From an uncultured Sterolibacteriaceae bacterium (GTDB lineage Bacteria; Pseudomonadota; Gammaproteobacteria; Burkholderiales; Rhodocyclaceae): DNA of 64,000 bases. Numbering within the stretch: the first letter of the stretch is position 1; every line of letters begins with the position of its first letter. The stretch lies in assembly GCA_937888595.1 (NCBI GenBank), contig CALARK010000007.1, positions 23,995-87,994 on the forward strand, read 5' to 3'. Under the pieces are notes generated by a model that made no database searches, was not told the DNA's origin, and saw only the letters and a list, made by a program, of their open reading frames with translations. Shown here piece after piece: positions 2,340 to 50,044 of this stretch. Made by a program: the position numbers and the translations under genes.

Positions 2340-2377
2340 CCTGTACCGAATTTCAAGAGATTAACCAGGAGTCCGCC

Positions 2378-7285: not shown

Positions 7286-7293
7286 GCGCGCAG

Positions 7294-8685: not shown

Positions 8686-8695
8686 GCCTGCAGCC

Positions 8696-9868: not shown

Positions 9869-9871
9869 CCG

Positions 9872-12473: not shown

Positions 12474-12480
12474 TGAAATT

Positions 12481-12556
12481 TGGTGGGTGGTACAGGATTC
12501 GAACCTGTGACCAATTGGTTAAAAGCCAACTGCTCTACCGACTGAGCTAACCACCC
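12481..12556 (-). tRNA. tRNA-Lys (anticodon TTT)
   Basis: Reverse complement reads GGGTGGTTAGCTCAGTCGGTAGAGCAGTTGGCTTTTAACCAATTGGTCACAGGTTCGAATCCTGTACCACCCACCA. Confidence 0.9.
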
Positions 12557-15222: not shown

Positions 15223-15990
15223 CTACCGCTTCTTCTTGGGGGCGAGCGTCTTGATGCGTGCGCGGGCAGTTTCCACCGCCGGACTGGTCGGGTACTTCTC
15301 GACCAGCGTCTGCAGCACCTTCACCGCGCCATCGACATCCTTCGCGCCGACCAGCGCGTTCGACTGGGCGAGCAGGGCATCCGGGGCCTTCGCGTCGTTC
15401 GGCCAGGTGGCGGCGACGTGGCCGAAGGCCTGCGCCGCGGGTGCATACTGCTTCTGCTGATACAGGCTCGAACCGAGCCAATAGTGCGCGTTGGGCAGCA
15501 TCGTCGACTGGGTGTGGCCGGAGATAAAGGCCTCGAAAGCGGCTTGCGCCTCCTTGAATTTGCTTTCGCGGAACAGGCCGAGGGCTGTCTCGTAGTCCCG
15601 CATTTCCGTCTGCGGGTCGGCCTTGGGCTGGGCCGGTGCAGCCGGGTCGGCCGAAGGCATCGTCGTCGATTCGAGCTTTCGCAGGCGGTTGTCGAGGTCG
15701 ACGTAGAAATCCTGCTGGCGCTTCTGGGCCGTTTCGACGGCGTTCATCAGCACTTCGACCTGGCCGCGCAGGCGGGCCACTTCGGTGCGCAGGGACTCCA
15801 TCTGGTTGGCGAAATCGAGCTGGTTGCGCGAGGCCGTGTCGACACGCTGCGTCAGGGCGTCGAGCGCCTGCGTCAGTTCGGTCCGCAACTGCGCGACCTG
15901 CTGGCGGGCCCCGTCATCCTCGAACAGGGCGGCGTGCGCCGGCAGCGCGAGGAGCGCGCCGGCAAGCAACAGCGGCCTCAACTTCATCAA
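15223..15990 (-). CDS. cpoB: Tol-Pal system protein CpoB/YbgF
   Basis: 255 aa with a signal peptide, coiled-coil N-terminus and TPR-like C-terminus (YWLGSSLYQQKQYAPAAQAF). Lies downstream of pal. Confidence 0.85.
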   Translation of the reverse strand: MMKLRPLLLAGALLALPAHAALFEDDGARQQVAQLRTELTQALDALTQRVDTASRNQLDFANQMESLRTEVARLRGQVEVLMNAVETAQKRQQDFYVDLDNRLRKLESTTMPSADPAAPAQPKADPQTEMRDYETALGLFRESKFKEAQAAFEAFISGHTQSTMLPNAHYWLGSSLYQQKQYAPAAQAFGHVAATWPNDAKAPDALLAQSNALVGAKDVDGAVKVLQTLVEKYPTSPAVETARARIKTLAPKKKR

Positions 15991-16526
15991 AACTCGCCCG
16001 AGTAGAGCATGTCACCGCGGCGGTTCTGCGCCCAGCAGCTTTCCGCGGCTTCCATGCAGGCCGGCTTTTCCTCGCCGAGGCTGACCGACTCGAGCTGCAC
16101 TTCCTTGGCGCCGAGCAGTTGCAGCGCTTTCTTCACCGCCTCGGCGCGCTTCTGGCCGAGCGCCAGGTTGTATTCACGGCTGCCGCGCTCGTCGGCATGC
16201 CCCTGGATCAGCATCTTCATCTGATCGTTCCGGGCCAGGAACTTGGCGTGATGCTCGAGCAGGGCCTGGTATTCGCCCTTGACGACGTAGCTGTCGTAGT
16301 CGAAATAGACGCTGCGCTTGGCGAGCGGGCTCTGCGGGTCCTTCAGGGCGGCCAGCGCATAGGGGTCGGCCGTAGCGGCAGCGACCGGGGCGGTGGTCGC
16401 CACGGCATTCGGGTTGCGGTCTTCGACGCCGGCGCCGGCCTGTTCGGGGGCTGCCGGCTGGCTGCCGCAACCGGACAGTGCGGCGAGAACGATCAGGGAA
16501 ACGGAAAGGGCATAAGCGGTGCGCAT
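15987..16526 (-). CDS. pal: Peptidoglycan-associated lipoprotein Pal
   Basis: Lipobox LAALSGC and an OmpA-like domain (VYFDYDSYVV...GHADERGSREYNLALGQKRA). Confidence 0.9.
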   Translation of the reverse strand: MRTAYALSVSLIVLAALSGCGSQPAAPEQAGAGVEDRNPNAVATTAPVAAATADPYALAALKDPQSPLAKRSVYFDYDSYVVKGEYQALLEHHAKFLARNDQMKMLIQGHADERGSREYNLALGQKRAEAVKKALQLLGAKEVQLESVSLGEEKPACMEAAESCWAQNRRGDMLYSGEF

Positions 16527-16580
16527 GGCGAGGTCCTATGGAGGCGGGTGGGTGGAGGCTGCGTGGAGAGTGTGTGACGG

Positions 16581-17855
16581 CTACGGGTTGAACGGGCCCC
16601 AGGCGGGCTCGCGGACATCGGCGGCCTGAACGGACAGCCGCTGCTTGACGCGGCCGTCGACCGAGACCGCGGCGAGCACGCCGCGCCCCCCGACTTCGGT
16701 GGCGAACAGGATCATGCGGCCGTTGGGCGCGAAGCTGGGCGATTCGTCCTTGGCCGTGTCGGTCAGGATCTGGGTCTGGCGCGTCGCGAGGTCCATGACC
16801 GCGACGCGGAAGCGTCCGCCGTCGCGCGTGACGAAGGCCAAGGTTTTGCCGTCCGGCGAGAGGCGCGGGGTGACGTTGTAGCTGCCGTCGAAGGTGATGC
16901 GCTGCGCGCTGCCGCCGGTGGCGGGCAGGCGATAGATCTGCGGGCTGCCGCCGCGGTCGGACGTGAAATAGATGAAGGCGCCGTCGGGCGAGAACTGCGG
17001 CTCGGTGTCGATGCCGCTCGAGCTGGCCAGCCGGGTCACGCCGCTACCGTCGGCATTGACGAGATAGAGCTGCGAAGCGCCGTCCTTGGTCAGGACGACG
17101 GCGAGCCGCTTGCCGTCCGGCGACCAGGCCGGGGCGGAGTTCGAGCCCTTGAAGTTGGCGACGACATGGCGGCGGCCGGTGGCGAGGTCATGCACGTAGA
17201 TGATCGGCTTCTTCGCCTCGAAGGACACGTAGGCGAGCTTGACGCCGTCCGGCGACCAGGCCGGCGAGATGATCGGTTCGCGCGAGGCGAGCGCGGCCTG
17301 CGCGCCATTGCCGTCGGCATCGGCGATCTGCAGCTCGAAGCGTCCCGCGCTTTTCACGACATAGGCGATGCGCGTGGAGAAGATGCCGCGCTCGCCGGTG
17401 AGTTTTTCGTAGATGGTGTCGGCGATGCGGTGGGCGGTGGTGCGGATCTGCGCGGAAGTGTGGGCGTAGGCCTGGCCGGCGATCACGTTCTGCTTGAGGA
17501 TGTCGTGCAGGCGAAAGCGCGTTTCGTAGCGCCCGTCGGCGAATGCGGTGACGCTGCCGGCGGCCAGGGCATCGGCGCCGCGCGCCTTCCAGGCGGCATG
17601 GTCGGGCAGCGAGTTTTCGTCGAGGGTCGCACCGCTCGTGTCGATCAGGTTGAAGCGGCCGCTGCGCTCGAGATCGGATCGGACGACCGAGCCGAGGGCC
17701 TTCGACACGCCGGCGGCGCCGGCGAATTCGGTGACGGCGACCGGCATGCGCTGGGCGCCGGCCCCGGTGATCTCGATGGAAAGCTGTGCGTGTACGGACA
17801 ATGCCGCCAGTGACATAGCCAGGCTGGCCGCGAGTCGGGTAATCTGGATTTTCAT
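16581..17855 (-). CDS. tolB: Tol-Pal system beta-propeller protein TolB
   Basis: Start at MKIQITRLAASLAMSLAALSVHAQ. Repeated PAWSPDG / PQFSPDG / PRLSPDG propeller motifs. Confidence 0.9.
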   Translation of the reverse strand: MKIQITRLAASLAMSLAALSVHAQLSIEITGAGAQRMPVAVTEFAGAAGVSKALGSVVRSDLERSGRFNLIDTSGATLDENSLPDHAAWKARGADALAAGSVTAFADGRYETRFRLHDILKQNVIAGQAYAHTSAQIRTTAHRIADTIYEKLTGERGIFSTRIAYVVKSAGRFELQIADADGNGAQAALASREPIISPAWSPDGVKLAYVSFEAKKPIIYVHDLATGRRHVVANFKGSNSAPAWSPDGKRLAVVLTKDGASQLYLVNADGSGVTRLASSSGIDTEPQFSPDGAFIYFTSDRGGSPQIYRLPATGGSAQRITFDGSYNVTPRLSPDGKTLAFVTRDGGRFRVAVMDLATRQTQILTDTAKDESPSFAPNGRMILFATEVGGRGVLAAVSVDGRVKQRLSVQAADVREPAWGPFNP

Positions 17856-17884
17856 GGGGTTCGCATTATAGACCGCCGGCCGGA

Positions 17885-18643
17885 TCAATCTTCCCGCGGA
17901 CGGAAGCGCAGTTCCAGCGTGCGGCTGAAAAGCTCGCTCTGGGGCGGTTTCGGCAGCGGGCTCGACTTGCGGATGGCACGCTCGGTGGCGTCGTCGTAGG
18001 CGGCATGGCCGGACGACTTGAGCAGCCGCACGTTCAACACTTCCCCGGAAGGCAACTGGGTGACCTCGAAGACCGCTTCCGGGTTACCCTTGATGTCGGA
18101 CGGCAGGATGATGTTGCCGCGTACCTTGCCGCGGATGCGCGCCATGTAGTCGGCCATCGCACTCGCCTTGAGGGCGCCCGCCTGCTGGGCTTTCAAGGCA
18201 TCGAGCTCGCGCGCGGCCGCCTCGGCAGCCTTGCGCTGCTGTAATTGCTCGGCTTCGCGGCGGAGTTCCTCCTTGAACGGGTCCGGGGCCGGCTTCGGCG
18301 GTTCCGGCTTGGGTTCGGGCTTTTTGGGCGGGGGCTTCGGCTTTTCCTTCTGCGCGATGTCCGGCTTGGGCGGCGTGGGGACCGGCTTGGGTGGTTCCGG
18401 TTTCGGCTCGGGTTTCAGTTCCGGTTTGGGCTCGGGCTTGGGCTCGGGTTTGGGTGCCGGGGCAGAAGTCGGCGCCGGCGGGACGGCACGCACCAGCTCT
18501 ACCTGAACGGCCGATTCCTGCTGCGTCTGCCAGCGGATGCCATAGACCAGCAACACGACCAGCAGCACGTGCATCAGCACGGCCAGTGCGAAGGAGATGC
18601 GCTTGCCCGGGGCGGGGCGCGGCTTGGCGGGGGCGTCCGTCAT
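17885..18643 (-). CDS. tolA: Cell envelope integrity protein TolA
   Basis: 252 aa with an N-terminal anchor, a PKPEPKPEP linker, a charged helix and a TolA C-terminal domain. Contains one repeat copy (AVPPAPTS). Confidence 0.85.
   Translation of the reverse strand: MTDAPAKPRPAPGKRISFALAVLMHVLLVVLLVYGIRWQTQQESAVQVELVRAVPPAPTSAPAPKPEPKPEPKPELKPEPKPEPPKPVPTPPKPDIAQKEKPKPPPKKPEPKPEPPKPAPDPFKEELRREAEQLQQRKAAEAAARELDALKAQQAGALKASAMADYMARIRGKVRGNIILPSDIKGNPEAVFEVTQLPSGEVLNVRLLKSSGHAAYDDATERAIRKSSPLPKPPQSELFSRTLELRFRPRED
18464..18487 (+). repeat. 24-nt repeat copy r (inside tolA, antisense to the gene)
   Basis: AGAAGTCGGCGCCGGCGGGACGGC, 1 mismatch. Read as AVPPAPTS. Confidence 0.85.
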
Positions 18644-18713
18644 GACCGTTGCCCGCCCATCCCCAGCCCTTCCCTCGCGGGAAGGGAGACTGCGTGCTCG
18701 CTGCGCTCGATCT

Positions 18714-19127
18714 TCATTTCCGGCCAGGCTGCACCAGCAGCCCGATCTTCGCGACCTGGGCGCGCTGCAGCTCGTCCATCACCGTCAGCACCGCTTCGTA
18801 GCGCACGCTCTTGTCGCCGGCGATCAGCACCGGCTGCTCGGGATGCTTCGCCTGCAGTTCGCGGATGCGTTCCTTCAGTTCGAGACGGCCGACGGTGACT
18901 TCGGCGCCGCCGAGGGCGCGGTCGCGTAGCGCCATCTCGCCGTCGGCCTTGACGATGATCTCGAGCGGCTCGACGGGCGGTGTCGCGGCCTTGCCGACGC
19001 TCGGCAGTTCGATGGCGGCGGGCTGGATCATCGGCGCGGTGACCATGAAGATCACCAGCAGCACCAGCATCACGTCGATGTAGGGCACGACGTTGATTTC
19101 ATGCTTGAGGCGGCGCGGACGACGCAT
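18714..19127 (-). CDS. tolR: TolR (ExbD/TolR family)
   Basis: 137 aa. [19 protein letters not shown] motif; position between tolQ and tolA. Confidence 0.9.
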
Positions 19128-19130
19128 GGC

Positions 19131-19808
19131 TTACTTCATCTGCCGCTGCAGGATGTTGGAGAACTCTTCCATGAAGCTCTCGAAGCGGACGGCGATGCGG
19201 TCGGTGTCATGCGCGAAGCGGTTGTAGGCGACCACGGCGGGGATAGCTGCGAACAGGCCGATGGCGGTGGCGACCAGCGCCTCGGCGATGCCGGGCGCGA
19301 CGGCGGCGAGCGTGGCCGTGGTCATGCTGGCGAGGCCGCGGAAGGAATGCATGATGCCCCATACCGTGCCGAACAGGCCGACATAAGGCGAGACTGAACC
19401 GACCGAGGCGAGGAAGGCGAGGTGCGCCTCGAGGTCGTCGATCTCGCGCTGGTAGGTGGCACGCATGGCGCGGCGGACGCCATCGATCGCGGTCGCCGGG
19501 TCGAGCGACTTCTGGCCGCGCAGCTTGCTGAATTCGCGGAAGCCGGCCTCGAAGATGCGTTCCAGCGCGCCGCTGTGGTGGCGGTCATTGACGGCGCTCT
19601 GGTAGAGGCTGTTGAGGTCGCCGCCGCTCCAGAACTCGCGTTCGAAGGCCTCGGTTTTCTGGCGGGCGTCGCGGATCTGGAACCACTTGCGGAAGATCCA
19701 GTACCACGACATGACGGAGACGTAGGCGAGCAGCCCCATGACCAGCTTGACGACGAGGCTGGCGTTGACGATCAGTTCGACGAGGGCAAGATCCTGGGTG
19801 ACGTTCAT
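19131..19808 (-). CDS. tolQ: TolQ (MotA/TolQ/ExbB proton channel)
   Basis: Start at [17 protein letters not shown] (ATG 19808). C-terminal [13 protein letters not shown]...[15 protein letters not shown]. Confidence 0.9.
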
Positions 19809-26889: not shown

Positions 26890-28239
26890 TTAGGCGGCGG
26901 CCGGCTTGATATCGACGATCTCGGCGATCGGCAGGGTCGCGATGTCCTTGAGCTTCTCGAGGCGCATGCCGTCCTGCTCGAGCAGCGCGGCGACCTGGGA
27001 AAAGCTCGAGGAGACGAACACCTCGCGGCCGTCGGGCGAGCGGCGGCGCACGCCGTAGGAGAGGCGGGCCCGCTCTTCGGCGGGCAGCTTGCCGATCAGC
27101 GACTTGGTGACCCAGACGCTGCCGTGGCGGGCGAAATCGGAAATGCGCGCGGCCTGGTTGATGGTGTCGCCGAGCACCACGAACTCGATGCTGGTCGGCG
27201 TCTGGAAGGTGCCCAGCCACTCCTGGCCCTCGTTGATGCCGGTGTTGAGGTAGAGCTCGTTGAACCACTGCTTGCGCAGCTGCCAGGCCTTGGACAGATG
27301 CTGGACGACCTGGCGGATTTCCAGTGCGCAGGAGACGGCGTTGGCGAGATAGTCACTGTCGGGCTGCGGGAAGAAGTAATAGACGAGGCCGTCACCGACG
27401 TGCTTGCCGCAGGTGCCGCGGTATTTGCGGAACACCGGCGCCAGCGTGCGCCAGATCTCGTTGATCAGTTCGAAATATTCCTCGGGCGGCAGTTCGGAGC
27501 AGATCTTCACCGAACTCTGCAGGTCGGAAACCAGCACGGCCAGGTTCGTCAGCACCGGCAGACGCTTGCGCAGCAGTTCGCGGATCACCTCGTCGCGGCG
27601 CATCAGCAGGTCGATCATCGCGTCCGCCGGCCCGCTGTCGGGGCTCAGGACGACGAAGATGCCTTCACGGAAGAAGGAGGCGTAGGCCTGGTAGTAATCC
27701 TCGCCCTTGTCCGGCCGGGGCATGCGCACCTCGGACTGGACGATCGGACGGTGGGGCGGCACCTCGGGCGCATCGATATACGCGGCTTGCAGGCGGGCAT
27801 AGGTCACCGGGTCGAGGCCGCGGCAGACGTTGCCGAAAGCTTCGGCGCTCAGGCTGGACTTGGCAATGCCGACATGGAAGGCCATCAGGCTGCCCATTTC
27901 GCCGCGCCCGACCGGCAGCAGGCGGAACAGGTTGCGCGCATCGCTGGTCTGCGGCAGGTCGAGGTGGCCGCCGAACAGGCACTGGCGGGCGGCCGCGTTG
28001 ATCCACAGCAGCTCGAAATTCTGGTTGATCATGTAAGCCGGATGCTCGATATCGTCCAGCGTCAGATGCAGTGGAGCGGAGTGAGCACCCGCCTGCCCGG
28101 CGGTGTGGCCGGTGGCGAGGCGCTCGACGATCTGGGCCATGCTGAGTCCCTCCTGCTTGAGGCGGCGCACTTCGTCGATGCTCGGCGAAGATTTTCCGGA
28201 AAGCGGCGTCATGTCGTGAATGGTCGGGTCATGGGACAA
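26890..28239 (-). CDS. Class III adenylate/guanylate cyclase with an N-terminal sensory region
   Basis: 449 aa. C-terminal cyclase homology domain ([11 protein letters not shown]...[12 protein letters not shown]...[12 protein letters not shown]). The N-terminus has a short HTH-like segment and a PAS-like stretch. Confidence 0.75.
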
Positions 28240-30798: not shown

Positions 30799-30872
30799 CA
30801 TTACCCGCCCCGGGGATTGCCAGTCCAGCCGGGGCATGCCATGATCGCCCCCTTGCGCTGCCTGATCAGACA

Positions 30873-32858
30873 ATGATTTCCCCCCTCACACGCCTCCTGC
30901 CGCTGCCCCTCCTGATGCTTCTGCTCGGAAGCGGCAGCGGCATGGCGGCCGATATCTCGGAAAAGGACTACTTCACCGAACTACCCGAAGTGCTGACAGT
31001 AACGCGCCTTGCGCAGCCACTCAGCGAAACGCCCGGCGCAGTGACCATCATCGACCGCGAGACGATCCGGCGCTCGGGGGCTCGTGAACTGGTAGATGTG
31101 CTGCGGCTGGTGCCGGGGTACATGGTGGGGGGGTGGTCGGGCGCCAATCCCGCAGCTGCGTACCACGTACCGCTGGATGACTACGGTACCCGAAACCTGG
31201 TCATGGTCGATGGACGCTCCGTCTACTCGTCCTTCCTGATGGGAGATACCCATCGCGGCATGATGATGGTTCCCCTCGAAGACATCGAGCGCATCGAGGT
31301 GCTCCGCGGTTCGAACTCCGCGGCCTATGGCGCCAATGCGATGTTCGGGGTGATCAACATCGTCACGCGTCACAGCGTGGATAGCCACGGGATGGAACTG
31401 GCAGTCACAGGTGGGGAAGGGGGCATCTGGGACAATCGTGCCCGCATCGGCTGGGGCGATGCTGCCGCCAGCTTTCGGATTTCCGCAGAGCGCCGGCATG
31501 ACAGCGGCTATGCGCAGGCTTACGACGACAAGACAGTCAGCCAGTTGCACTTCCGCGCCGACTTGCGGCCTGCCGCAGATCAGGAAATCTTCCTCGCTGC
31601 CGGGGTGGCTGAGCAGTCTGCCGGGGATGGATTTCCCGGCGCATTCAACAATGGAAATCCGCAACGTAATACTGGCTGGCATGACTACTATCTGCAGGGG
31701 GCCTGGCAACGGCAGTTATCCCCTACCGAGCAGATCAAACTGTCTGCCAGTTACGATGAGGAGTCGATTCGGGACAACTATCCCTATCAACTCTCGCTGG
31801 CGCCGCCGGTCGTATTGCAAACCGTGTTGATCGACTTTGGCGGACGTGCGCGCCGGCTCAATCTCGAGTTTCAGCACCAGCGGGCCCTGAACGACGAATG
31901 GCGTGGCGTGTGGGGCGCGGGCTACAAATACGAAGAGGCAGTGTCGCCGCCGCTTTATTACACCCGTGACCCGGTATCGCTGAACGAGAAGCGCCTGTTC
32001 GGTTCGCTCGAGTGGCGACCGAATTCACGCTGGCTTTTCAATGCCAGTGCGTTCTGGGGGGATCACAGCCGCAAGGGAAGCTATTTCATGCCCCGGCTCA
32101 TGGCCAATTTCCATGTCTTGCCGGAGCATACCCTGAGGGCGGGGGTGACCAGATCGTCGCGCATGCCCAACCTTTATGAACTGGCTTCTGACAGGCGCTA
32201 CGACACGGTGCTTGGGCAGTTGCGCTATGACACAGCTACCGGGCAGGTGGATCCGGAAACGCTGGAAACCGAAGAACTGGGCTACTTTGGGGAGTTCCGT
32301 GCGGCACGCATGACGCTCGATGTGCGCGCCTACCGCGAGCGGATGTATGGCGTGATCGATACCCGATGCATCGTCTGGGGGTGTGGCGGGCTGGGTGTCG
32401 ACTACGTGAATTACCGGGACCTGGAAACGCGCGGCGTCGAGTTCCAGTTGAGATGGAAACCCTTTGCGGGCACCGAAGTCTGGCTCAATCATAACGATCA
32501 GCGTTTCGACTGGACCCGGGACCGCTATAACCCGGGCTTTGTCCACCGCCAGCATGTGCCGCCACGGCGCAATTCGACATTGGCGCTGTTCCAGAAGCTG
32601 CCCGGCAATATCGATCTTTCGCTTATCTATTCCACCACCACCGAGATGACGTGGCGTGACCTGGAAAGAAGCCTGCGCCCCATCGGTCGCACCGATCTTC
32701 GCATCGCCTACCCGTTCAGGATGGGGTCGACACGCGCGGAAGCATCCTTGACTGTTCAGGCTTTGGGAGGGGGCTATGTGGCGTCCTACCCAAGGACGAA
32801 CTTCCCCTCCTTGTCCTTCGAGCGCCGTGCTTTCGGCACCCTCAGGCTGGAATTCTGA
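30873..32858 (+). CDS. TonB-dependent outer-membrane receptor (paralog 1)
   Basis: 661 aa with a signal peptide, plug domain (PGAVTIIDRETIRRSGARELVDVLRLVPG, VLRGSNSAAYGANAMFGVINIVT) and a barrel ending LRLEF. Confidence 0.9.
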   Translation: MISPLTRLLPLPLLMLLLGSGSGMAADISEKDYFTELPEVLTVTRLAQPLSETPGAVTIIDRETIRRSGARELVDVLRLVPGYMVGGWSGANPAAAYHVPLDDYGTRNLVMVDGRSVYSSFLMGDTHRGMMMVPLEDIERIEVLRGSNSAAYGANAMFGVINIVTRHSVDSHGMELAVTGGEGGIWDNRARIGWGDAAASFRISAERRHDSGYAQAYDDKTVSQLHFRADLRPAADQEIFLAAGVAEQSAGDGFPGAFNNGNPQRNTGWHDYYLQGAWQRQLSPTEQIKLSASYDEESIRDNYPYQLSLAPPVVLQTVLIDFGGRARRLNLEFQHQRALNDEWRGVWGAGYKYEEAVSPPLYYTRDPVSLNEKRLFGSLEWRPNSRWLFNASAFWGDHSRKGSYFMPRLMANFHVLPEHTLRAGVTRSSRMPNLYELASDRRYDTVLGQLRYDTATGQVDPETLETEELGYFGEFRAARMTLDVRAYRERMYGVIDTRCIVWGCGGLGVDYVNYRDLETRGVEFQLRWKPFAGTEVWLNHNDQRFDWTRDRYNPGFVHRQHVPPRRNSTLALFQKLPGNIDLSLIYSTTTEMTWRDLERSLRPIGRTDLRIAYPFRMGSTRAEASLTVQALGGGYVASYPRTNFPSLSFERRAFGTLRLEF

Positions 32859-33805
32859 TGCCAAGGTACCTACGCATAGCCGTCGCCGCAGCTTGCCTGC
32901 TGTGTATGACTTTGGTATATGCGCAGGGCAGCCAGCCGCGTATCTGGGTGGCGCTGTCGGAGGAGGGGGGGGCGTATGCCGAAAGTGCGGCGGTGCTGCG
33001 CGCCGAGCTGGCGGATCGCACCAATCTGGTCGTTGGGAAGTGGCCGTCATTCTTTGTCGACCGATGGGCACCCCCCGATCTCCTGATCACCGTCGGCATG
33101 GCGGCGTTCGAAGGCGTGTTGCGCGACCTGGACAGCCGTGGCCCGGAGTGGGCCGGCATCCCGGTGCTGGCAACCCTGCTGCCGCGTTCCGGATACGAGG
33201 CGCAACTGAAGGCAGCCCGGAAAACGGGACGACCGATATCCGCGGTGGTTCTCGATCAGCCGGCGGAACGGCAGCTTGCGCTGATTGCCCGGGCGCTGCC
33301 CGACCGACGACGGGTCGGGGTGCTGGCCGGCTCCAGGTCGCAGGCGCTGCTGACGGAACTTCAGCGGGCGGCGGCATCCCGGAAGCTCGGGCTGGAGGTG
33401 ATTGCCGGCGTGGCCGCGCCGGAAACGCTCTTCCCTGCCCTGAAAGGCGTGCTGGATACCGCCGATGTGATTCTCGCGATCCCCGATTCGGCTGTCTACA
33501 ACGCCGGCAGCTTGCAGAACATCCTGCTGACGACCTATCGGGCGCGGGTGCCGCTGGTGGCCTTCTCGCCGGCCTATGTCAAGGCGGGAGCGATACTCGC
33601 CGTGTATTCGACGCCTGCGCAGGTGGCACGGCATGCGGCTGGCATCGTGCGTGACTGGCAGGCGGGGGGCGTCCTGCCCGCGTTGCAGATGCCGGCGGAG
33701 TTCGCCGTCGTGGCCAATCCCAAGGTGGCCGCTTCGCTGGGGATCGGACTGGATGACGCAGTCGAAATTGCCGAGGATATGAGGAAGGGAGCGGCCGGCA
33801 GATGA
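32858..33805 (+). CDS. Periplasmic ABC_sub_bind-type substrate-binding protein, orphan (paralog 1)
   Basis: 315 aa with a signal peptide and a conserved block LQNILLTTYRARVPLVAFSPAYVKAGAILAVYSTPAQVA. Its start overlaps the receptor stop by 1 nt. Confidence 0.7.
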   Translation: MPRYLRIAVAAACLLCMTLVYAQGSQPRIWVALSEEGGAYAESAAVLRAELADRTNLVVGKWPSFFVDRWAPPDLLITVGMAAFEGVLRDLDSRGPEWAGIPVLATLLPRSGYEAQLKAARKTGRPISAVVLDQPAERQLALIARALPDRRRVGVLAGSRSQALLTELQRAAASRKLGLEVIAGVAAPETLFPALKGVLDTADVILAIPDSAVYNAGSLQNILLTTYRARVPLVAFSPAYVKAGAILAVYSTPAQVARHAAGIVRDWQAGGVLPALQMPAEFAVVANPKVAASLGIGLDDAVEIAEDMRKGAAGR

Positions 33806-33845
33806 TCCATTGCGGCCAGGGTTGGAGTAGAGGCTGGGAGGGGGC

Positions 33846-35849
33846 GTGAAGGTCGTTCAACGAAGTCTGCTGGTCGTGGCGCTGCTCGCCTGCGCGACGC
33901 ACGCACAGTCGGAAGACGAGGTGATGCAGCAGATCCGGGAGATGAGTCTCGAAGAACTGATGACGACCACCGTCACGATTTCGACGAGTACGAAGCAGAC
34001 GCTCTCGAAGGCGCCTGCGGTGGTTTCCGTTCTCACGGCCGAAGCTATCCGTGCGACGGGTACGACCAACCTCATGGAGATCCTGCAGGGGGTGCCCGGC
34101 ATCTACGTCAAGACCAACCTGTTCGGCTTCAAGCCGCTGATCAGCTTTCGCGGCGCTTCGGGGACCAACGTGCTGCTGATGATCAATGGCGCGCCGGCCA
34201 AAGATCTGGTCTGGTCGCCGGGCATTTTCTGGAAAGGCGTTCCCGCCAACATGATCGAGCGCATCGAGATCATCCGCGGACCGGGTTCGGCGCTCTACGG
34301 GTCCGATGCGTCCGCCGGCGTCATCAACGTCATCACCAAAACCGCCGGCAGCATCGATTATGCCGAGGCCGGTCTGCGTGTCGGCAGCTTCGATACAGGT
34401 GCCGCCTGGTTGCAACATGGCATGCAATGGAACGGATTCGATATCGCCCTGACGGCCGATCTGTCCACGACCGATGGTCACAATCCCTTTATCCGGAGGG
34501 CGTTCGGCAACACCAGCGGTCGGGCTGACTACGGTTATGAAAGCCAGGATTGGCATCTGTCGGTTGCGCGGGGGAACTGGCGCATGCTGCTCGATCATTA
34601 CCGCCACGACGATGTCGCCATCGGCCTCACCGGTGGCGCGGTGCTGGATCCCCAAACCCGTGCAAACGACAGCCTCAGCAGCTTGGCCCTGCTCTATGCT
34701 GCTCCGGAATTCGCCGACCACTGGGCGCTGAATGGCGAATTCCGCTACCGCGACATGGAATACACCTCGGGCAACGGCTACTTCGAGGGGATTCCCGCCT
34801 ATGCCAACCTCAAGCAGGAAAGCTCAGCGGAGCGCCGCTGGAATTTCGAAGTCAGCGCCTTGTACTCGGGTATCCGCGATCACTCGCTGCGTGTCGGGGG
34901 GGGCTACGTTGAGCATGATCTGTATGCTTTTACACAGGTCCTCGATGGCGTGTCGAAGGTGATCGATAACGGGGATACCTACACTTTTCTACCTACCGCC
35001 GTGGTACCTGCCACCTCGGTCGCCCCCCACAGGCGCAAGAACCGCTACTTCTTTGTCCAGGATATCTGGAGCTTTGCTCCGGACTGGGAGCTGACCGCAG
35101 GCGTGCGCTACGACCATTACTCGGATTTCGGTCGCACGCTCAATCCGCGGCTGGCACTGGTCTGGCAGACAACGGACCGCTTCACGACGAAGCTGATGTA
35201 TGGCCAGGCATTTCGCGCACCCTCCTATCTGGAGCGCTACGTCACGACCGCCGCCAACCCGCCCAATCCGTCGCTACGCCCGGAAAAATCGAAAACCCTC
35301 GAGTTGTCGTTCGCCTGGCGGGCCACGCGGGATCTCAGACTGGGCACCAACTTCTATCGTTTCGATCGCCGAGAAGTCATCGCGCCGAGTCCGCCGGTCA
35401 GCGGCCAGTTTTCCAACCACGATCGCTTCGTCACAAGCGGCATCGAATTCGAGGCGCAGTGGCAGGCGCTGAGCAACCTGCGGCTTGCGGGCAACCTGTC
35501 GCACATGAAGAACGAGGACGTGACTTCGCCGTTGCGCGATGTCGCGCTGCCCCGAACGCAGGCCTATGTGCGTGTCGACTGGGCATTCCAGCCGAAATGG
35601 AACTGGAATCTGCAGATGAACTGGTTCGGATCCCGACCGCTGCCTGCGGGCGATTTGCGGTCACCCCAGGGCGCCTATGCGCTGGTTGATACCACCATCC
35701 GCTATTACCATGGCAGCGATTGGGAGTTCGCCGCATCGATACGCAACCTCCTTGACGAGGATGCTGCCGAGTATTCAAGCACGCGGCTCTGGTACAACCT
35801 GCCCCTGCCTGGCCGCAGCGCTTTCGTCGAAGCGCGCTACAAGTTCTAG
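33846..35849 (+). CDS. TonB-dependent outer-membrane receptor (paralog 2)
   Basis: 667 aa with a GTG start. Plug domain (APAVVSVLTAEAIRATGTTNLMEILQGVPG, IIRGPGSALYGSDASAGVINVIT) and a barrel ending ARYKF. Confidence 0.9.
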   Translation: MKVVQRSLLVVALLACATHAQSEDEVMQQIREMSLEELMTTTVTISTSTKQTLSKAPAVVSVLTAEAIRATGTTNLMEILQGVPGIYVKTNLFGFKPLISFRGASGTNVLLMINGAPAKDLVWSPGIFWKGVPANMIERIEIIRGPGSALYGSDASAGVINVITKTAGSIDYAEAGLRVGSFDTGAAWLQHGMQWNGFDIALTADLSTTDGHNPFIRRAFGNTSGRADYGYESQDWHLSVARGNWRMLLDHYRHDDVAIGLTGGAVLDPQTRANDSLSSLALLYAAPEFADHWALNGEFRYRDMEYTSGNGYFEGIPAYANLKQESSAERRWNFEVSALYSGIRDHSLRVGGGYVEHDLYAFTQVLDGVSKVIDNGDTYTFLPTAVVPATSVAPHRRKNRYFFVQDIWSFAPDWELTAGVRYDHYSDFGRTLNPRLALVWQTTDRFTTKLMYGQAFRAPSYLERYVTTAANPPNPSLRPEKSKTLELSFAWRATRDLRLGTNFYRFDRREVIAPSPPVSGQFSNHDRFVTSGIEFEAQWQALSNLRLAGNLSHMKNEDVTSPLRDVALPRTQAYVRVDWAFQPKWNWNLQMNWFGSRPLPAGDLRSPQGAYALVDTTIRYYHGSDWEFAASIRNLLDEDAAEYSSTRLWYNLPLPGRSAFVEARYKF

Positions 35850-35858
35850 ACGTTCGAC

Positions 35859-36800
35859 ATGCCGCGCTGGATCGTCCGCGTCGTCATTGCCTGCCTGCTG
35901 GCCATCGCGCTGGCAGGGCCGGCCGCGGCGCAGTCGCAGGTCTGGGTGGCGCTGGGCGGCGAGGACGGGCCTTACGAGGAGATGGCGGCGGTATTGCGTG
36001 CGGAATGGCGGGATCGCCCGCTGCTGATCGCTCCTTGGACCGCCCTTGCGGAACGGGCGGGACCCCCGCCGGACCTCGTCGTGGCCGTCGGCGCGGCGGC
36101 CTTCGAGGGCATGCTCAAGAACCTGCAGAAGCGCGGTCCGGCCTGGGAGGCGGTGCCGCTGATGGGCACGCTCCTGCCGCAGCTCGCGTACCGGACCACG
36201 CTCGAGAGGTTGCAGCCCGTGCGTCGCCCCGTATCCGCGGTCGTCCTCGACCAGCCGTTTCAGCGCCAACTGGACCTGATCCGGGATGCCCTGCCGTCGC
36301 GTCCGCGCGTCGCCGTGCTGGCCAGCCCGCAGACCCGCCCGTTGCTGAAAGCCCTGGAGCGCGAAGCGCAGGGGCGCGGCATGCAATTGATTGCCGCCCG
36401 GGAGATTGACCGGGCAGAGGATATCTTTCCCGCGCTCAGGCAGGCCCTGGAGCAGGCGGATGTCCTCCTCGCCCTCCCCGATACGCTGATTTACAACGGC
36501 AGCAGCCTGCAGAACATCCTGCTGACGACCTATCGGGCCCGCGTGCCGGTGGTGACGTTCTCGCCGGCCTATGTCAAGGCGGGCGCATTGCTGGCCGTCT
36601 ATTCCACACCGGCACAGGTGGCCCGGCAGGTGGTCAGGAAACTCGCTCAATGGCGGCCCGGCCAGCCGTTGCCCGAACCGTCATCTCCCGGCGAGTTCGC
36701 CGTCGTCGCCAATCCGCGGGTGGCGTCATCCCTCGGCATCGGCCTCGATGATGCCGTGCAGATCGCCGGGGATCTGCGTGCCGCCGAGGGGAGGCGCTGA
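35859..36800 (+). CDS. Periplasmic ABC_sub_bind-type substrate-binding protein, orphan (paralog 2)
   Basis: 313 aa, clearly paralogous to 32858..33805 (LQNILLTTYRARVPVVTFSPAYVKAGALLAVYSTPAQVA). Confidence 0.7.
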   Translation: MPRWIVRVVIACLLAIALAGPAAAQSQVWVALGGEDGPYEEMAAVLRAEWRDRPLLIAPWTALAERAGPPPDLVVAVGAAAFEGMLKNLQKRGPAWEAVPLMGTLLPQLAYRTTLERLQPVRRPVSAVVLDQPFQRQLDLIRDALPSRPRVAVLASPQTRPLLKALEREAQGRGMQLIAAREIDRAEDIFPALRQALEQADVLLALPDTLIYNGSSLQNILLTTYRARVPVVTFSPAYVKAGALLAVYSTPAQVARQVVRKLAQWRPGQPLPEPSSPGEFAVVANPRVASSLGIGLDDAVQIAGDLRAAEGRR

Positions 36801-36802
36801 CC

Positions 36803-37945
36803 ATGGTCCGTCTCGGCTTCCGTGGTCGTCTGCTGCTCGGTGCGGTGTTGCCGGCGCTGATGATGGTGCTGGTGCTGGAAACGGTCTTTCTCGATCGCTA
36901 CCGGGCGGATATCGAGCGCTCCTTCCTCGAGCGCGGCAAGGCGATTGCGCACCAGCTGGGTGTGGCAGCCGAATATGCGCTCTTCAGCGGCAGCTTCGAT
37001 TCGCTCGACCTGCTGGCCACGGGGGTGCGCGAGAGCGATAGCGACATCGTGTCGATCAACATCCTCGACCGCAGCGGCCGGCGCCTGGCGGGCGACGGGC
37101 TCTGGCCGCGCCACCGGCTGTCGCTGGAGGATCGCCTGGTCGTGGTCAGCGATGAAGCGCATGTCACCATCCAGGCGCCGATACGCCAGACCGCGCTGCC
37201 GCTGGAAAACGAGTTGTGGTCGGGCAACGGCAGCACGGCAGCGAAGCAGCCGGTCACCGGTTATGTCGTCGTCGAGATTTCGCGCGACCAGATCAACGAG
37301 CGCAATGCCGAAATGCTGCGCATCACGCTGGCGATCGTCCTGGCCGGTCTGCTGCTGGCCAGCTGGGTGTCGGCGCGCATTGCCGGCGACGTGCTGCGCA
37401 AGCTCGAGACCGCCAGTCGCGAGCTGACGCGCCAGAAGGAGGCGGCCGAGGCGCTGGCGCGTACCGATGTCCTGACGGGCCTGGCCAACCGCCGTGCGTT
37501 CGACGAGGCGGCGCAGCGTGAAATCCGGCGCGCCGTGCGCTACGGCGAGCCGCTGGCCCTGATCATGACGGATATCGACCGCTTCAAGGCCATCAACGAT
37601 ACGCACGGCCACCATGCCGGCGATCAGGTGCTGGTGAGCTTCGCCCATACCCTGCGCGCCGCGGTGCGGGAGGTGGACCTCGTCGGCCGCTGGGGCGGCG
37701 AGGAGTTCGTCATCCTGATGCCGGGAACGGATATCGAAGAGGCGCAGCAGGTGGCGGAACGCATGCGGCAGGCAGTCGCGGCCGCACCGGCACACTACGA
37801 AGACGTGGACTGCAGTTACACCGCCAGTTTCGGCGTGGCGGTTTTCAGGTCCGACATGCCATCGCTCGATGCCCTGCTGGGCACCGCCGACCAGGCGCTC
37901 TATCGCGCCAAGGAAAACGGCCGCAACCGCGTCGAGACAGGCTAG
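36803..37945 (+). CDS. Membrane-bound diguanylate cyclase (2 TM, periplasmic loop, GGDEF)
   Basis: 380 aa. TM helices near aa 10-30 and 175-195 with about 145 aa between them. GGDEF domain with an RWGGEEF active site. Starts 2 nt after the binding-protein stop. Confidence 0.9.
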   Translation: MVRLGFRGRLLLGAVLPALMMVLVLETVFLDRYRADIERSFLERGKAIAHQLGVAAEYALFSGSFDSLDLLATGVRESDSDIVSINILDRSGRRLAGDGLWPRHRLSLEDRLVVVSDEAHVTIQAPIRQTALPLENELWSGNGSTAAKQPVTGYVVVEISRDQINERNAEMLRITLAIVLAGLLLASWVSARIAGDVLRKLETASRELTRQKEAAEALARTDVLTGLANRRAFDEAAQREIRRAVRYGEPLALIMTDIDRFKAINDTHGHHAGDQVLVSFAHTLRAAVREVDLVGRWGGEEFVILMPGTDIEEAQQVAERMRQAVAAAPAHYEDVDCSYTASFGVAVFRSDMPSLDALLGTADQALYRAKENGRNRVETG

Positions 37946-39645: not shown

Positions 39646-41046
39646 TCAGTAGCGATAGTGCTCGGCCTTGTACGGACCGTTCTTCGGCACGCCGATGTAG
39701 GCGGCCTGCTGGTCGGTCAGCTCGGTCAGCTGGGCGTTGAGCTTCTTGAGCTGCAGGCGCGCCACCTTCTCGTCCAGATGCTTGGGCAGCGTATAGACAC
39801 CGACCGGGTAATCGGCGTTCTTGGTGAACAGTTCGATCTGCGCGATGGTCTGGTTGGCGAACGACGAGGACATCACGTAGCTCGGGTGCCCGGTGGCGCA
39901 GCCGAGGTTCACCAGGCGGCCCTTGGCCAGCAGGATGATCCTTTTCCCATCCGGGAAGATGATGTGATCGACCTGCGGCTTGATTTCCTCCCACTGATAC
40001 TTCTCGACGGATGCGACATCAATCTCGTTGTCGAAGTGGCCGATGTTGCAGACGATGGCCTGGTCCTTCATCTTCGCCATGTGGTCATGGTTGATGACGT
40101 GGTAGTTGCCGGTGGCGGTGACGAAGATGTCCGCCTTGTCGGCGGCGTAGTCCATCGTCACGACGCGGTAGCCTTCCATCGCGGCCTGCAGCGCGCAGAT
40201 CGGGTCGATCTCGGTTACCCAGACTTGCGCGGAAAGCGCCCGCAAGGCTTGCGCCGAACCCTTGCCCACGTCGCCGTAGCCGCACACCAGCGCGATCTTG
40301 CCGGCGACCATCACGTCGGTGGCGCGCTTGATGCCGTCGACCAGCGATTCGCGGCAGCCGTAGAGGTTGTCGAACTTGGACTTGGTGACCGAGTCGTTCA
40401 CGTTGATCGCGGGGATCTTCAGGTCGCCGCGCTCATGCATCTGGTAGAGGCGATGCACGCCGGTGGTGGTTTCCTCGGTCACGCCCTTGATCTGCGCCAG
40501 ACGGGTCGAATACCAGGTTTTGTCGGTCTCGAGCTTCTTCTTGATCGCGGCGAAGAGGATGGTTTCCTCTTCCGAGGTCGGCTTGGCGATGACGGAAATG
40601 TCCTTCTCCGCCTTGGCGCCGAGGTGCAGCAGCAGCGTGGCGTCGCCGCCGTCGTCGAGGATCATGTTGCTGTAGCCATTGTCCGGCCACTCGAAGATGC
40701 GGTGGGTGTAGTCCCAGTAGTCGGTCAGTGACTCGCCCTTGACGGCGAAGACGGCGATGTCATCCTTGGCGATGGCGGCGGCGGCGTGGTCCTGGGTCGA
40801 GAAAATGTTGCACGAGGCCCAGCGCACTTCGGCGCCGAGGGCGGTCAGCGTCTCGATCAGCACGGCGGTCTGGATGGTCATGTGCAACGAACCGGTGATG
40901 CGTGCGCCTTTCAGCGGCTGGGCTTTGGCGTATTCCTCGCGGATCGCCATCAGGCCGGGCATCTCGGTCTCGGCGATGCGGATTTCCTTGCGGCCCCAGT
41001 CGGCGAGGCCCATGTCGGCAACAACGTAATCAGCAGGTGTGGTCAT
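39646..41046 (-). CDS. ahcY: Adenosylhomocysteinase
   Basis: Start at [33 protein letters not shown] (ATG 41046). NAD motif [10 protein letters not shown]. Confidence 0.95.
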
Positions 41047-41121
41047 GAGGTTCAGGCTCCTTGAACATGACCGGGGGCGAGTCGTGGATTGCGCATGCTG
41101 GCTCACCGTCCCGGAGATGGG

Positions 41122-41182
41122 TTGGTGAGCGCCGTTTAGAAAAACGAGCCTGGCGGTGAAACCGTTGCAGCGCTCCTCGATG
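41122..41182 (-). promoter_or_regulatory. SAH riboswitch in the ahcY leader
   Basis: The minus strand reads UCGAGGAGCGCUGCAACGGUUUCACCGCCAGGCUCGUUUUUCUAAACGGCGCUCACC. This carries the conserved GAGGAGCGCUGC, CAGGCUCG and AACGGCGCUCAC blocks as I recall them for the SAH riboswitch class, about 75 nt upstream of ahcY. Confidence 0.75.
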
Positions 41183-41282
41183 GGGTGCGATTATAGTCCA
41201 GTCGCTACCTGACGCGCGTCAAGGCCCGGCCGGCAGGAATAAGGCTATCCTTGCCGCCATTTTTCCTTCGGTGGAGTCGGGA

Positions 41283-47848: not shown

Positions 47849-50044
47849 ATGAACCTGCCCAAGACCCTCGCCGGCGATTTCTGGGGTGGCCTGGCCGCCA
47901 TGCTGGTGGCGTTGCCCTCGGCGATCGCCTTCGGGGTGACGATCTACGCGCCCCTCGGCGCCAGCGCGGCCGCGCAGGGCGCGCTGGCCGGCATCCTCGG
48001 CGCGATGGCGCTGGGCCTGATCGCCGCCTCGCTCGGCGGGGCGCCGCGCCTCATCAGCGCGCCCTGCGCGCCGGCCGCCGCGGTGCTGGCCGCCTTCGCC
48101 ATCGAGCGCCTGCAGGCGGGCAGCGATGCCGTGTCGATCATGCTGATGCTCACGGTGCTGGGGCTGATGGCCGGCCTGTTGCAGGTCGCCTTCGGCGCAC
48201 TGCGGCTCGGCAAGCTGATCGAATACATGCCCTACCCGGTGGTGAGCGGCTACCTGTCCGGCGTCGGGCTGATCATCATTGGCAGCCAGGTGCCCAAGCT
48301 GCTCGGCGCCGGGAAAGACATGACGCTCTGGCCGGCGCTCGCCGCTCCGGCGCAATGGAATCTTGCCAGCCTGGCGATCGGGGTCGTCACGGCCGGCGTG
48401 ATGCTCGCCGCGCCCCGGTTCGTCAAGCGCGTGCCGGCGGCGATCCTCGGCCTGCTGGCGGGCGTGCTGGCCTATCTCGGCCTCGGGCTGGCGGACGTGG
48501 TGCCGCTGTCCACGGCCGCGAACCCGCTCGTGGTGGGGCCGTTGTCGACGGGCGAAGGCGCCGGCTTCCTCGATGCGCTGCTCGGACGCTGGCAGGCCGC
48601 GAGCGCGCTCGATGTGCACACGCTGGCGCTGCTGGTCTTTCCGGCGCTGACGCTGGCCGGCCTGCTGTCGATCGACACGCTGAAGACCTGCCTGGTGCTC
48701 GACGCGATGACGCGTTCGCGCCACCAGTCGAACCGCGAGCTGTTCGGCCAGGGCATGGCCAACATCGGCTCGGCGCTGATCGGCGGCATGCCGGGCGCGG
48801 GCACCATGGGCGCGACGCTGGTCAACCTGTCTTCCGGCGCGCAGACCCGCCTGTCCGGCATGTTCGAGGGGGCGCTCGCGCTGCTCGCCTTCCTGCTGCT
48901 CGGTGCGCTGATCGCCTGGGTGCCGGTGGGGGCGCTCGCGGCGATCCTCATCGTCATCGGCGCGCGCATGATCGACCGCAACAGCCTGCATTTCCTCAAG
49001 TCGCGCGCGACGATCCTCGACTTCGCCGTGATCCTCGCCGTCATCCTCACCGCGCTGTTCGTCGGCCTGATCCCGGCTTCGGGCGTCGGCATCCTGCTGG
49101 CGATCCTGCTGTTCGTGCGCGAGCAGATCGGCGGCGCCGTGGTGCGCCGCAAGCTCGCCGGCAACCAGAATTTCTCGAAGCGCGTGCGGCCCCGGCAGGA
49201 GATGGAGATCCTCGTCGAACGCGGCGACTGCGCGGCGATCTGCGAACTGCAGGGCAGCCTGTTCTTCGGTACCGCCAACCAGCTCTACGCCGCGCTGGAG
49301 CCGGAACTCAAGACGCGCGACTACCTGATCCTCGACCTGCGCCGCGTGCAGACCGTGGACGTCACCGCGGCGCACATGCTCGAACAGGTCAAGGACATGC
49401 TCGCCGAACGCGGCGGCTGCCTGATCTTCAGCCAGATCCCGCAGAAGCTGCCGACCGGGCGCGACATCCGCAAGTATCTCGATGAAGTCGGCCTACTCAA
49501 GGCGGGCGATGCCGTCCGGGTGTTCGACGAGATCGACCAGGCGCAGGAGTGGGTGGAGGACCGCATCATCAAGGCGGCGGCGCTCGAACTCGCGGCGGAG
49601 ACCGCGCTCGCGCTCCCCGACCTCGAACTGTTCAGGAACCGCAAGGCACAGACTCTCGCCGCGCTGGAGCAGCACATGGAGCAGCGTGCCTTCCAGGCCG
49701 GCGAGAAGATCTTCGCGCGCGGCGACACCGGCGACGAGCTGTTCCTGATCCGGCGCGGTGCGGTGCGCATCCTGCTGCCGGTGAGCGATACCCTGAGCCA
49801 CCATCTCGGCACCTTCGGCCGCGGCGCCTTCTTCGGCGAGATGGCCTTCCTCGATGGCGAGCCGCGCTCGGCCGACGCCGTCGCCTTCAGCGACGTCGAG
49901 CTCTACGTGCTGTCGCGTGCCGTCTTCGACCAGTTCGCCGAGGAGCACAAGAAGGCCGCGCTCGCCCTGATGGAAGGCATCGCCAGCGTGCTGGCGAGCC
50001 GCCTGCGCTACACCAACGCCGAACTGCGCGCGCTCGAAGCCTAG
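47849..50044 (+). CDS. SulP family anion transporter fused to STAS and cyclic-nucleotide-binding domains
   Basis: 731 aa. SulP membrane core, then STAS (AICELQGSLFFGTANQLY), then a cNMP-binding domain (FARGDTGDELFLIRRGAVRI...FFGEMAFLDGEPRSADA). Confidence 0.85.
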   Translation: MNLPKTLAGDFWGGLAAMLVALPSAIAFGVTIYAPLGASAAAQGALAGILGAMALGLIAASLGGAPRLISAPCAPAAAVLAAFAIERLQAGSDAVSIMLMLTVLGLMAGLLQVAFGALRLGKLIEYMPYPVVSGYLSGVGLIIIGSQVPKLLGAGKDMTLWPALAAPAQWNLASLAIGVVTAGVMLAAPRFVKRVPAAILGLLAGVLAYLGLGLADVVPLSTAANPLVVGPLSTGEGAGFLDALLGRWQAASALDVHTLALLVFPALTLAGLLSIDTLKTCLVLDAMTRSRHQSNRELFGQGMANIGSALIGGMPGAGTMGATLVNLSSGAQTRLSGMFEGALALLAFLLLGALIAWVPVGALAAILIVIGARMIDRNSLHFLKSRATILDFAVILAVILTALFVGLIPASGVGILLAILLFVREQIGGAVVRRKLAGNQNFSKRVRPRQEMEILVERGDCAAICELQGSLFFGTANQLYAALEPELKTRDYLILDLRRVQTVDVTAAHMLEQVKDMLAERGGCLIFSQIPQKLPTGRDIRKYLDEVGLLKAGDAVRVFDEIDQAQEWVEDRIIKAAALELAAETALALPDLELFRNRKAQTLAALEQHMEQRAFQAGEKIFARGDTGDELFLIRRGAVRILLPVSDTLSHHLGTFGRGAFFGEMAFLDGEPRSADAVAFSDVELYVLSRAVFDQFAEEHKKAALALMEGIASVLASRLRYTNAELRALEA

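Follow-up and report, generated by a model that had tools for sequence, protein, structure and literature searches.

We analysed a 64,000-nucleotide stretch of DNA from an uncultured Sterolibacteriaceae bacterium (contig CALARK010000007.1; hereafter the window), in which five genes on the plus strand at positions 30873-37945 encode two TonB-dependent receptors (TBDRs), two periplasmic solute-binding proteins (SBPs) and a predicted membrane diguanylate cyclase (DGC), and this array appears to be a duplicated form of a three-part sensing module that is widespread but has hardly been studied. The genes are TBDR1 (30873-32858; 661 amino acids, aa; Plug plus 22-strand barrel type without an STN domain), SBP1 (32858-33805; 315 aa; PF04392-type), TBDR2 (33846-35849; 667 aa; a receptor of another subfamily than TBDR1), SBP2 (35859-36800; 313 aa; PF04392-type) and DGC (36803-37945; 380 aa). 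This order, with its overlap and its 2-nt gap, had been given by a first-pass annotation of the window, and the open reading frames (ORFs) were indeed found at those coordinates. The stop codon of TBDR1 and the start codon of SBP1 share one base in TGATG, TBDR2 begins with GTG, preceded by a GGGAGG ribosome-binding site, SBP2 starts 9 nt past TBDR2 and DGC starts 2 nt past the SBP2 stop. A weak sigma-70-like promoter candidate (TTGCCA-17-CATGAT, 9/12 matches) was found upstream of TBDR1 at 30817-30845 on the plus strand; it was the sole plus-strand site among 3 sites in the whole region against 1.3 expected, so it is suggestive only. Terminator signals inside the array were no commoner than in shuffled sequence. 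Because of the tight packing, the lone promoter-like site on the plus strand and the background level of terminator signals, the five co-oriented genes are most simply read as one operon. No gene for an ATP-binding cassette (ABC) permease, an ABC ATPase or TonB/ExbBD was found within about 10 kb of the array, as the first reading had said; the sole ABC ATPase of the window lies at 421-1044, and its sole ExbB/ExbD/TonB-family genes are tolQ, tolR and tolA in the tol-pal cluster at 15987-19808.

The Pfam search showed that the families expected from the first reading (PF04392, PF07715/PF00593 and PF00990) were all matched, with PF09984 in addition. This last family, sCache_4, covers residues 32-164 of the DGC (36896-37294, plus strand; 41 bits against a cutoff of 22.1), and independently of the Pfam match an NCBIfam search aligned residues 1-203 to the N-terminus of BarA. 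Two hydrophobic segments (residues about 6-30 and about 168-195) flank the domain, and the protein thus consists of a first transmembrane helix, the periplasmic sCache_4, a second transmembrane helix, a short helix and a GGDEF domain (37460-37930, plus strand; PF00990, 170 bits). The GGEEF site at residues 298-302 (37694-37708) is intact, and an RxxD I-site (REVD, residues 289-292, 37667-37678) stands five residues upstream in this predicted cyclase. Pfam found no HAMP domain in the DGC, and the histidine-kinase output (HAMP-HisKA-HATPase-REC-Hpt) was likewise absent, leaving GGDEF only. The two transmembrane helices, the missing HAMP and the intact GGEEF of the first-pass annotation therefore stood, but its loop with no recognisable domain is in fact the sCache_4, which we propose as the docking site of the SBPs. 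The DGC shares with the GacS/BarA-type sensors (sCache_4, formerly DUF2222) a PF09984 periplasmic domain between two transmembrane helices, but the canonical GacS/BarA members are unorthodox kinases with no described SBP partner, whereas the DGC has a GGDEF output and adjoins an SBP gene. In a 2012 census of sCache_4 proteins, 705 of 713 were kinases and 1 stood in the table's fourth column, which we read here as the cyclase (GGDEF) class. No ligand has been established for the sCache_4 of GacS/BarA (PMC4822843, PMC5595915, PMC7695008).

Both SBPs matched PF04392 (ABC_sub_bind) above its cutoff of 25.9 bits (35.3 bits for SBP1 and 37.6 bits for SBP2), in agreement with the earlier assignment, and by inspection signal-peptide-like N-termini were present on all four exported proteins. 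The match took in the C-terminal two thirds of the SBPs only (profile positions about 103-285). An AlphaFold2 model of SBP2 (predicted local distance difference test 90, predicted template-modelling score 0.82) was compared with solved structures by Foldseek, and its top matches were 3LKV, 3LFT, 6HNI and 6HNJ over about 300 columns (E 1e-15 to 1e-13, template-modelling scores 0.6-0.7). The solved PF04392 proteins include 3LFT of S. pneumoniae with bound Trp, 3LKV of V. cholerae and CD0873 of C. difficile. Because these matches to solved PF04392 proteins run over the full length, SBP2 is, as far as the model goes, a complete two-lobe (class-I periplasmic) binding protein of a diverged PF04392 subfamily. 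It has the two-lobe fold and the Pfam family in common with the canonical ABC-transporter SBPs (TrpX, 3LFT, 3LKV, CD0873), but the window SBPs are only 13-18% identical to them, their N-terminal lobe is unrecognised by the Pfam profile, and their genes adjoin sensor and TBDR genes instead of permease and ATPase genes. The subfamily is large, with 1299 clusters at 50% identity matched full-length at E<1e-30.

SBP1 and SBP2 are 54% identical (E 1e-105; DNA 77% over 210 nt), which is a moderate level and not that of the close paralogs described at first. The long identical stretches that had been noticed are present, but LQNILLTTYRARVP and the other peptides identical between the two proteins are motifs conserved throughout the SBP family. 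We considered recent duplication or gene conversion as the origin of these peptides and rejected it, given the family-wide motifs and the overall identity of 54%. In a neighbor-joining tree SBP1, SBP2, their orthologues in the nearest relative of the window array (L001; related loci are labelled in this way) and the SBPs of L002 and L004 formed one clade, and this shared clade indicates that SBP1 and SBP2 arose by lineage-specific duplication.

To compare gene neighbourhoods, an SBP profile search was run on one-per-species genomes and neighbour order was mapped by tblastn. The search gave 55 loci, all from Rhodocyclales or other Betaproteobacteria; the L039 record is labelled Bacteroidota, and its SBP clusters with Azonexus. 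An sCache_4-like sensor directly followed the SBP in 50/57 informative copies, three further copies were the upstream member of a duplicated array, and a TBDR lay within 3.5 kb of 49/59 SBP copies. The outputs of the 50 sensors were GGDEF (23), HAMP-GGDEF-EAL (13) and hybrid histidine kinase (12), with 2 cut by the contig end. In each of the seven loci whose coordinates were inspected (L002, L020, L032, L040, L047, L069 and L071), the SBP and sensor genes shared 4 nt, and a 1-nt TBDR/SBP overlap was seen in L002 as in the window. None of the approximately 55 homologous loci adjoined a BPD_transp_2-type permease or a dedicated ATPase gene, and the ABC genes near some of them come with their own Peripla_BP_6 or Peripla_BP_2 SBPs. 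Because the periplasmic sCache_4 partner is constant while the cytoplasmic output swaps, these neighbourhoods indicate a co-sensor role of the SBP beside the sCache_4 domain. The earlier view of the SBPs as sensor accessories and not transport components is borne out in the same way by the sensor that nearly always follows directly and is often translationally coupled, by its swappable output and by the lack of cognate ABC genes.

The array itself is flanked upstream by genes for a HerA-like ATPase and an EamA transporter and downstream, convergently, by metF, ahcY (behind a SAH riboswitch) and then metK, and a syntenic HerA-EamA-[X]-metF-ahcY locus was found in many metagenome-assembled genomes (MAGs) of Rhodocyclaceae, with X variable. 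In most syntenic loci X was TBDR1-SBP-DGC; it was TBDR1-SBP1-TBDR2-SBP2-DGC in the window, in L001 and, as far as the contig end, in L004, and the forms TBDR1-TBDR2-SBP-DGC and TBDR1-SBP-DGC-TBDR2 were also seen there. Outside this group, Dechloromonas/Azonexus loci had the SBP followed by an sCache_4-HAMP-GGDEF-EAL protein, with a convergent TBDR and a PilZ gene, while the SBP was followed by an sCache_4-HAMP-HisKA-HATPase-REC hybrid kinase in Aromatoleum (no TBDR) and in Burkholderiales (TBDR upstream); the kinase output is present in the relatives L032, L047 and L070. Independent Pfam-annotated metagenome and MAG contigs carried more distant family members in the same company, with genes for a TBDR, a PF04392 protein and an sCache_4-HAMP-HisKA-HATPase-REC(-Hpt) kinase of 784-810 aa following one another in this order. 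A search of a plasmid collection for homologues returned two weak Massilia matches only. Two homologue searches seeded with AT-rich or "xAD"-motif family members and aimed at gammaproteobacterial or Cycloclasticus members gave metagenome proteins and Betaproteobacteria only (Sulfuricella, Nitrosomonadales, Sulfuritalea and Rhodocyclaceae).

Several features of these relatives were seen in passing. Two modules occurred in one MAG, as with L011/L020 (UBA2271) and L012/L023, with TBDR1-SBP-DGC at HerA/metF and SBP-DGC-TBDR2 elsewhere, and the window array resembles a merger of both input types onto one cyclase. The Dechloromonas/Azonexus module (L039-L054, e.g. L040 9030-15616) is followed by its PilZ-domain gene and preceded by genes for a BtuF-like Peripla_BP_2 protein, a nitroreductase-family protein and an aminotransferase, a cobalamin-like context. 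The Aromatoleum modules (L032-L038, e.g. L032 3664-19464) have a divergent gene for a LuxR-type response regulator, and indolepyruvate-oxidoreductase-like, CoA-transferase III, AMP-binding ligase and Liv-type ABC genes in their surroundings may hint at aromatic ligands.

The nearest precedent is the Pah system of Cycloclasticus sp. P1, which consists of the TBDR PahS (687 aa), the SBP PahP (318 aa), the histidine kinase PahK (771 aa) and the GacA-type regulator PahR (PMC10570129; PMC8547461). Polycyclic aromatic hydrocarbons (PAHs) bind PahS and PahP, the latter at nanomolar level, and PahK bound none (PMC10570129). Surface plasmon resonance, fluorescence resonance energy transfer, bacterial two-hybrid and co-immunoprecipitation assays indicated that unloaded PahP sits on PahS and that loaded PahP leaves for PahK (PMC10570129), and mutants of each pah gene lose the PAH response (PMC10570129; PMC8547461). 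The import, capture and docking logic that the first-pass annotation had put forward agrees with the one reported experimentally for PahS/PahP/PahK (PMC10570129), and its remark that no characterised system has this architecture does not hold, since Pah has the TBDR-SBP-sensor order with a kinase output. As in the window, the order runs from TBDR over SBP to inner-membrane sensor with no ABC transporter, and the sizes of 687, 318 and 771 aa compare with 661-667 and 313-315 aa in the window and with the 784-810 aa kinases of L069-L071. The two systems differ in that Pah signals through a histidine kinase to a GacA-type regulator and the window through a GGDEF cyclase, that Pah has a single receptor/SBP pair and the window has two, and that the ligand of Pah is established (PAHs). 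Five of the six published PahP pocket residues (Y42, L135, A210, Y215 and F237) fall on the SBP-family hallmarks GxY, LDQP, xAD/xPD, IYN and GFS. The Y-173-Y-22-F spacing of PahP is identical in SBP2 (Y39, Y212, F234), and this spacing was found in 29/395 family members against 2/474 control ORFs. These residue matches are indirect evidence that PahP may be homologous to the window SBPs, and the Pah system is a probable relative of the module in the window.

Both receptors carried PF07715 and PF00593, with Plug and TonB_dep_Rec_b-barrel scores of 76 and 85 bits for TBDR1 and of 86 and 150 bits for TBDR2, and Phe is the last residue of both. TonB-box-like motifs, VLTVTR (TBDR1) and TVTIST, were recognised by inspection only. 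The two receptors are far more diverged from each other than the SBPs, as had been noted before, with likeness confined to the plug (35% over 120 aa). The best NCBIfam match of TBDR1 was NF053590, the TOL_0244 family, at 149 bits, which is far below the cutoff; TOL_0244 of T. oleivorans is an alkane-induced receptor resembling the Alcanivorax alkane sensor OmpS. TBDR2 matched heme, B12 and siderophore receptor models below threshold only. Relatives in the Protein Data Bank were tried as a guide to receptor substrate and dropped, because the alignments were limited to plug domains and were uninformative, and a riboswitch or known RNA leader ahead of the receptors, sought as a ligand clue, was not found. 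Weak hints at hydrophobic or aromatic ligands come from three sides: the TOL_0244 match, the aromatic amino acids bound by canonical PF04392 proteins, and the genes of aromatic catabolism near the Aromatoleum modules.

Selection and divergence were measured against L001. This analysis showed dN/dS (the ratio of nonsynonymous to synonymous divergence) of 0.13-0.22 in all five genes, which means that all of them are under purifying selection; SBP1, for example, is 83.6% identical to its orthologue with a dN/dS of 0.20. The synonymous divergence (dS) was 0.23-0.30 in flanking genes and about 0.5 in the SBPs and the DGC, and reached 1.2-1.5 in the receptors, which have 56% and 67% aa identity. The receptor divergence sits in the barrel, where 40-aa blocks are 15-57% identical, as opposed to 77-100% in the plug, and mosaic or hypervariable barrel stretches lie at 31633-32817 and 34777-35021, in both receptors. 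This pattern points to recombination or to a pressure that diversifies surface loops. The receptors also have a GC content of 0.607 against 0.67-0.70. From the barrel-focused divergence, the high receptor dS and the lower receptor GC, it appears that surface-exposed receptor parts are exchanged or diversified and that the periplasmic and inner-membrane parts are retained.

We propose that the array is not a nutrient importer but a sensing module whose gate lies in the outer membrane. Each TonB-dependent receptor would admit a ligand to the periplasm, where the cognate PF04392-type SBP would capture it, and the SBP, loaded or empty, would dock on the sCache_4 of the membrane cyclase and alter c-di-GMP synthesis by the GGDEF domain in either direction. 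The two receptor/SBP input pairs would converge on one cyclase as a lineage-specific elaboration. We infer the ligand transfer from TBDR to SBP, the contact between SBP and sensor and the effect on cyclase activity, and we regard receptor-gated entry with SBP capture and docking on sCache_4 that alters cyclase activity as reasonably probable. The principle is not new, as the TBDR-SBP-sensor logic has one published example in Pah; what is added here is the GGDEF-only output, the sCache_4 identity of the proposed docking domain and the duplicated input.

A number of observations weigh against this proposal. Four loci (L017, L019, L024 and L031), in which X is TBDR1-SBP-TBDR2 or TBDR1-SBP without a DGC, keep their TBDR(s) and SBP with no adjoining sensor, which means that an SBP need not have a partner gene beside it, and the Aromatoleum versions have no adjoining TBDR. 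The loci are phylogenetically clustered (mostly Rhodocyclales, with other Betaproteobacteria), and the counts given above overstate the number of independent events. The genome was viewed through the 64-kb window only, and a cognate ABC transporter could lie elsewhere in it. The Pah proteins were set beside the window proteins by published description and residue positions only, and the Pah paper (PMC10570129) calls PahK sensor-less and prints pahS primers that match a monooxygenase. In the four sensor-less loci the sensor may have been lost, or the TBDR and SBP may act with a partner whose gene lies at another place. The Tn7-pahSf/Tn7-pahSr primers (PMC10570129) bracket a flavin-binding monooxygenase (MKHPYLDVLIVGAGLSG...FRKLLSA), at 3255-4757 of L063 and also in L056-L068. 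Retrieval of the Cycloclasticus pahS by these primers was given up, as a metagenome scan with them gave 13 loci but the pair encloses this monooxygenase and not a TonB-dependent receptor, and the primer text in PMC10570129 seems to belong to another gene.

Part of the evidence can also be read in other ways. The 1-nt overlaps in the window and L002 couple TBDR and SBP as tightly as SBP and sensor, and this would suit SBP-fold proteins that report no free small ligand but shuttle between the periplasmic face of the receptor and the cyclase, with receptor occupancy or TonB energisation as the signal and not SBP loading; YfiR, which shuttles between YfiB and YfiN, is an analogue. That unliganded PahP is found on PahS and moves to PahK upon stimulation (PMC10570129) would fit such a switch as well. 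We hold it unlikely, however, as SBP2 was modelled as a complete binding protein with two lobes and with ligand-binding PF04392 structures as its best matches, conserved aromatics occupy the reported PahP pocket positions, and nanomolar ligand binding was reported for PahP itself (PMC10570129).

More doubtful is an arrangement in which the SBPs feed a distant ABC importer with TBDR-imported substrate and the DGC next to them works independently, sensing via its own sCache_4 pocket. Solved PF04392 proteins are ABC-transporter SBPs for aromatic amino acids, and both the four sensor-less loci and the 64-kb limit of the genome view leave room for it, but permease and dedicated ATPase genes are missing beside the homologous loci, SBP-sensor adjacency with start/stop overlaps is kept across three output classes, and the partly poor match to the PF04392 profile points to a diverged subfamily. 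We give least credence to a role of the SBP as a ligand chaperone, which would solubilise or concentrate a hydrophobic ligand coming from the receptor and hand it without stable docking to an sCache_4 that binds it directly. Cache domains mostly bind small ligands directly (PMC4822843), and the TOL_0244 family (matched below cutoff), the Pah receptor and the OmpS receptor are all tied to hydrophobic hydrocarbons; on the other hand, PahP bound PAHs where PahK did not (PMC10570129), and no sCache_4 domain has an established ligand (PMC7695008). Capture of a receptor-admitted ligand by the SBP, followed by docking on sCache_4, remains the explanation that we favour.

Binding proteins that control c-di-GMP enzymes are known from NspS-MbaA (V. 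cholerae), ScrB-ScrC (V. parahaemolyticus) and PruR-DcpA (A. tumefaciens), in which, much as proposed for the window, a periplasmic binding protein encoded by the adjacent gene acts via the periplasmic domain of the enzyme. Their SBPs are PotD-like or others that are not PF04392, and their enzymes are bifunctional GGDEF-EAL proteins; these systems are not known to have a dedicated TonB-dependent receptor or an sCache_4. In the YfiB-YfiR-YfiN (TpbB) system, the periplasmic protein YfiR splits between a partner at the outer membrane and a membrane GGDEF cyclase, to whose PAS-like periplasmic domain it goes. Here, however, the periplasmic protein is no SBP, the partner YfiB is a lipoprotein of the Pal type and no TBDR, the cyclase YfiN carries a HAMP domain, and envelope stress is the signal in place of an imported ligand. 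A TBDR governs the ligand or signal that reaches an inner-membrane regulator in PfeA-PfeS/R, PirA-PirS/R, the SusC-like receptors with hybrid two-component systems and the FecA-type systems, none of which is known to have an intermediary SBP. Transducers of the FecA type work through an anti-sigma factor and an STN domain at the N-terminus, and the window system has neither. Cell-surface signalling of this type was considered and rejected, since neither receptor has an STN domain and no sigma or anti-sigma genes were found among the genes flanking the array.

Other features of the window are given here for completeness. The SAH riboswitch (RF01057, 51.7 bits) lies at 41120-41184 on the minus strand, directly upstream of ahcY (39646-41106, minus strand), and the ahcY...metF unit abuts DGC convergently, so that the DGC stop codon (37943-37945) overlaps the metF stop. 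Further second-messenger genes encode a protein with a class III adenylate/guanylate cyclase domain (26890-28239, minus strand), a SulP-STAS transporter fused to a cNMP-binding domain (47849-50044, plus strand) and a PAS-PAS-GGDEF-EAL protein (60350-62455, minus strand). At 2207-10561 on the plus strand, a very long ORF of 1692 aa that resembles a fused pyruvate:ferredoxin oxidoreductase precedes RnfC, RnfD and other genes of the Rnf complex, and two tRNA genes lie at 12401-12556 on the minus strand.

What the periplasmic domains of GacS/BarA-type (sCache_4) sensors sense is a long-standing question, and most membrane diguanylate cyclases are without an established input. A conserved cassette of receptor, SBP and sensor would give two handles for finding the ligand, namely a purifiable SBP and a receptor knockout, and it would mean that the same input device serves both phosphorelay and c-di-GMP outputs, with the duplicated form in the window as a natural test case of two inputs into one c-di-GMP output. 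Given the Pah precedent and the known SBP-controlled c-di-GMP enzymes, the advance would be one of scope and generality and not of a new principle. It is possible, though doubtful at present, that in a large clade the sCache_4 serves as a docking platform for a dedicated PF04392-type SBP loaded via a dedicated TBDR, which would make a general three-compartment cassette for kinase, cyclase and phosphodiesterase outputs. A candidate member is PA1613-PA1612-PA1611 of P. aeruginosa, in which we take PA1613 to be a TonB-dependent receptor. PA1612 and PA1611 form an operon (PMC3462791), PA1613 is among the iron-acquisition proteins analysed as vaccine targets (PMC9864456), and PA1611 has a periplasmic PAS/Cache domain at residues 38-169 (PMC8694187). 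If the general cassette is real and these genes belong to it, an imported ligand might be linked to the RetS/GacS network. This wider point, a large sCache_4 sensor family to which an SBP and a receptor are dedicated and which possibly includes PA1613-PA1612-PA1611, could matter more than the array itself.

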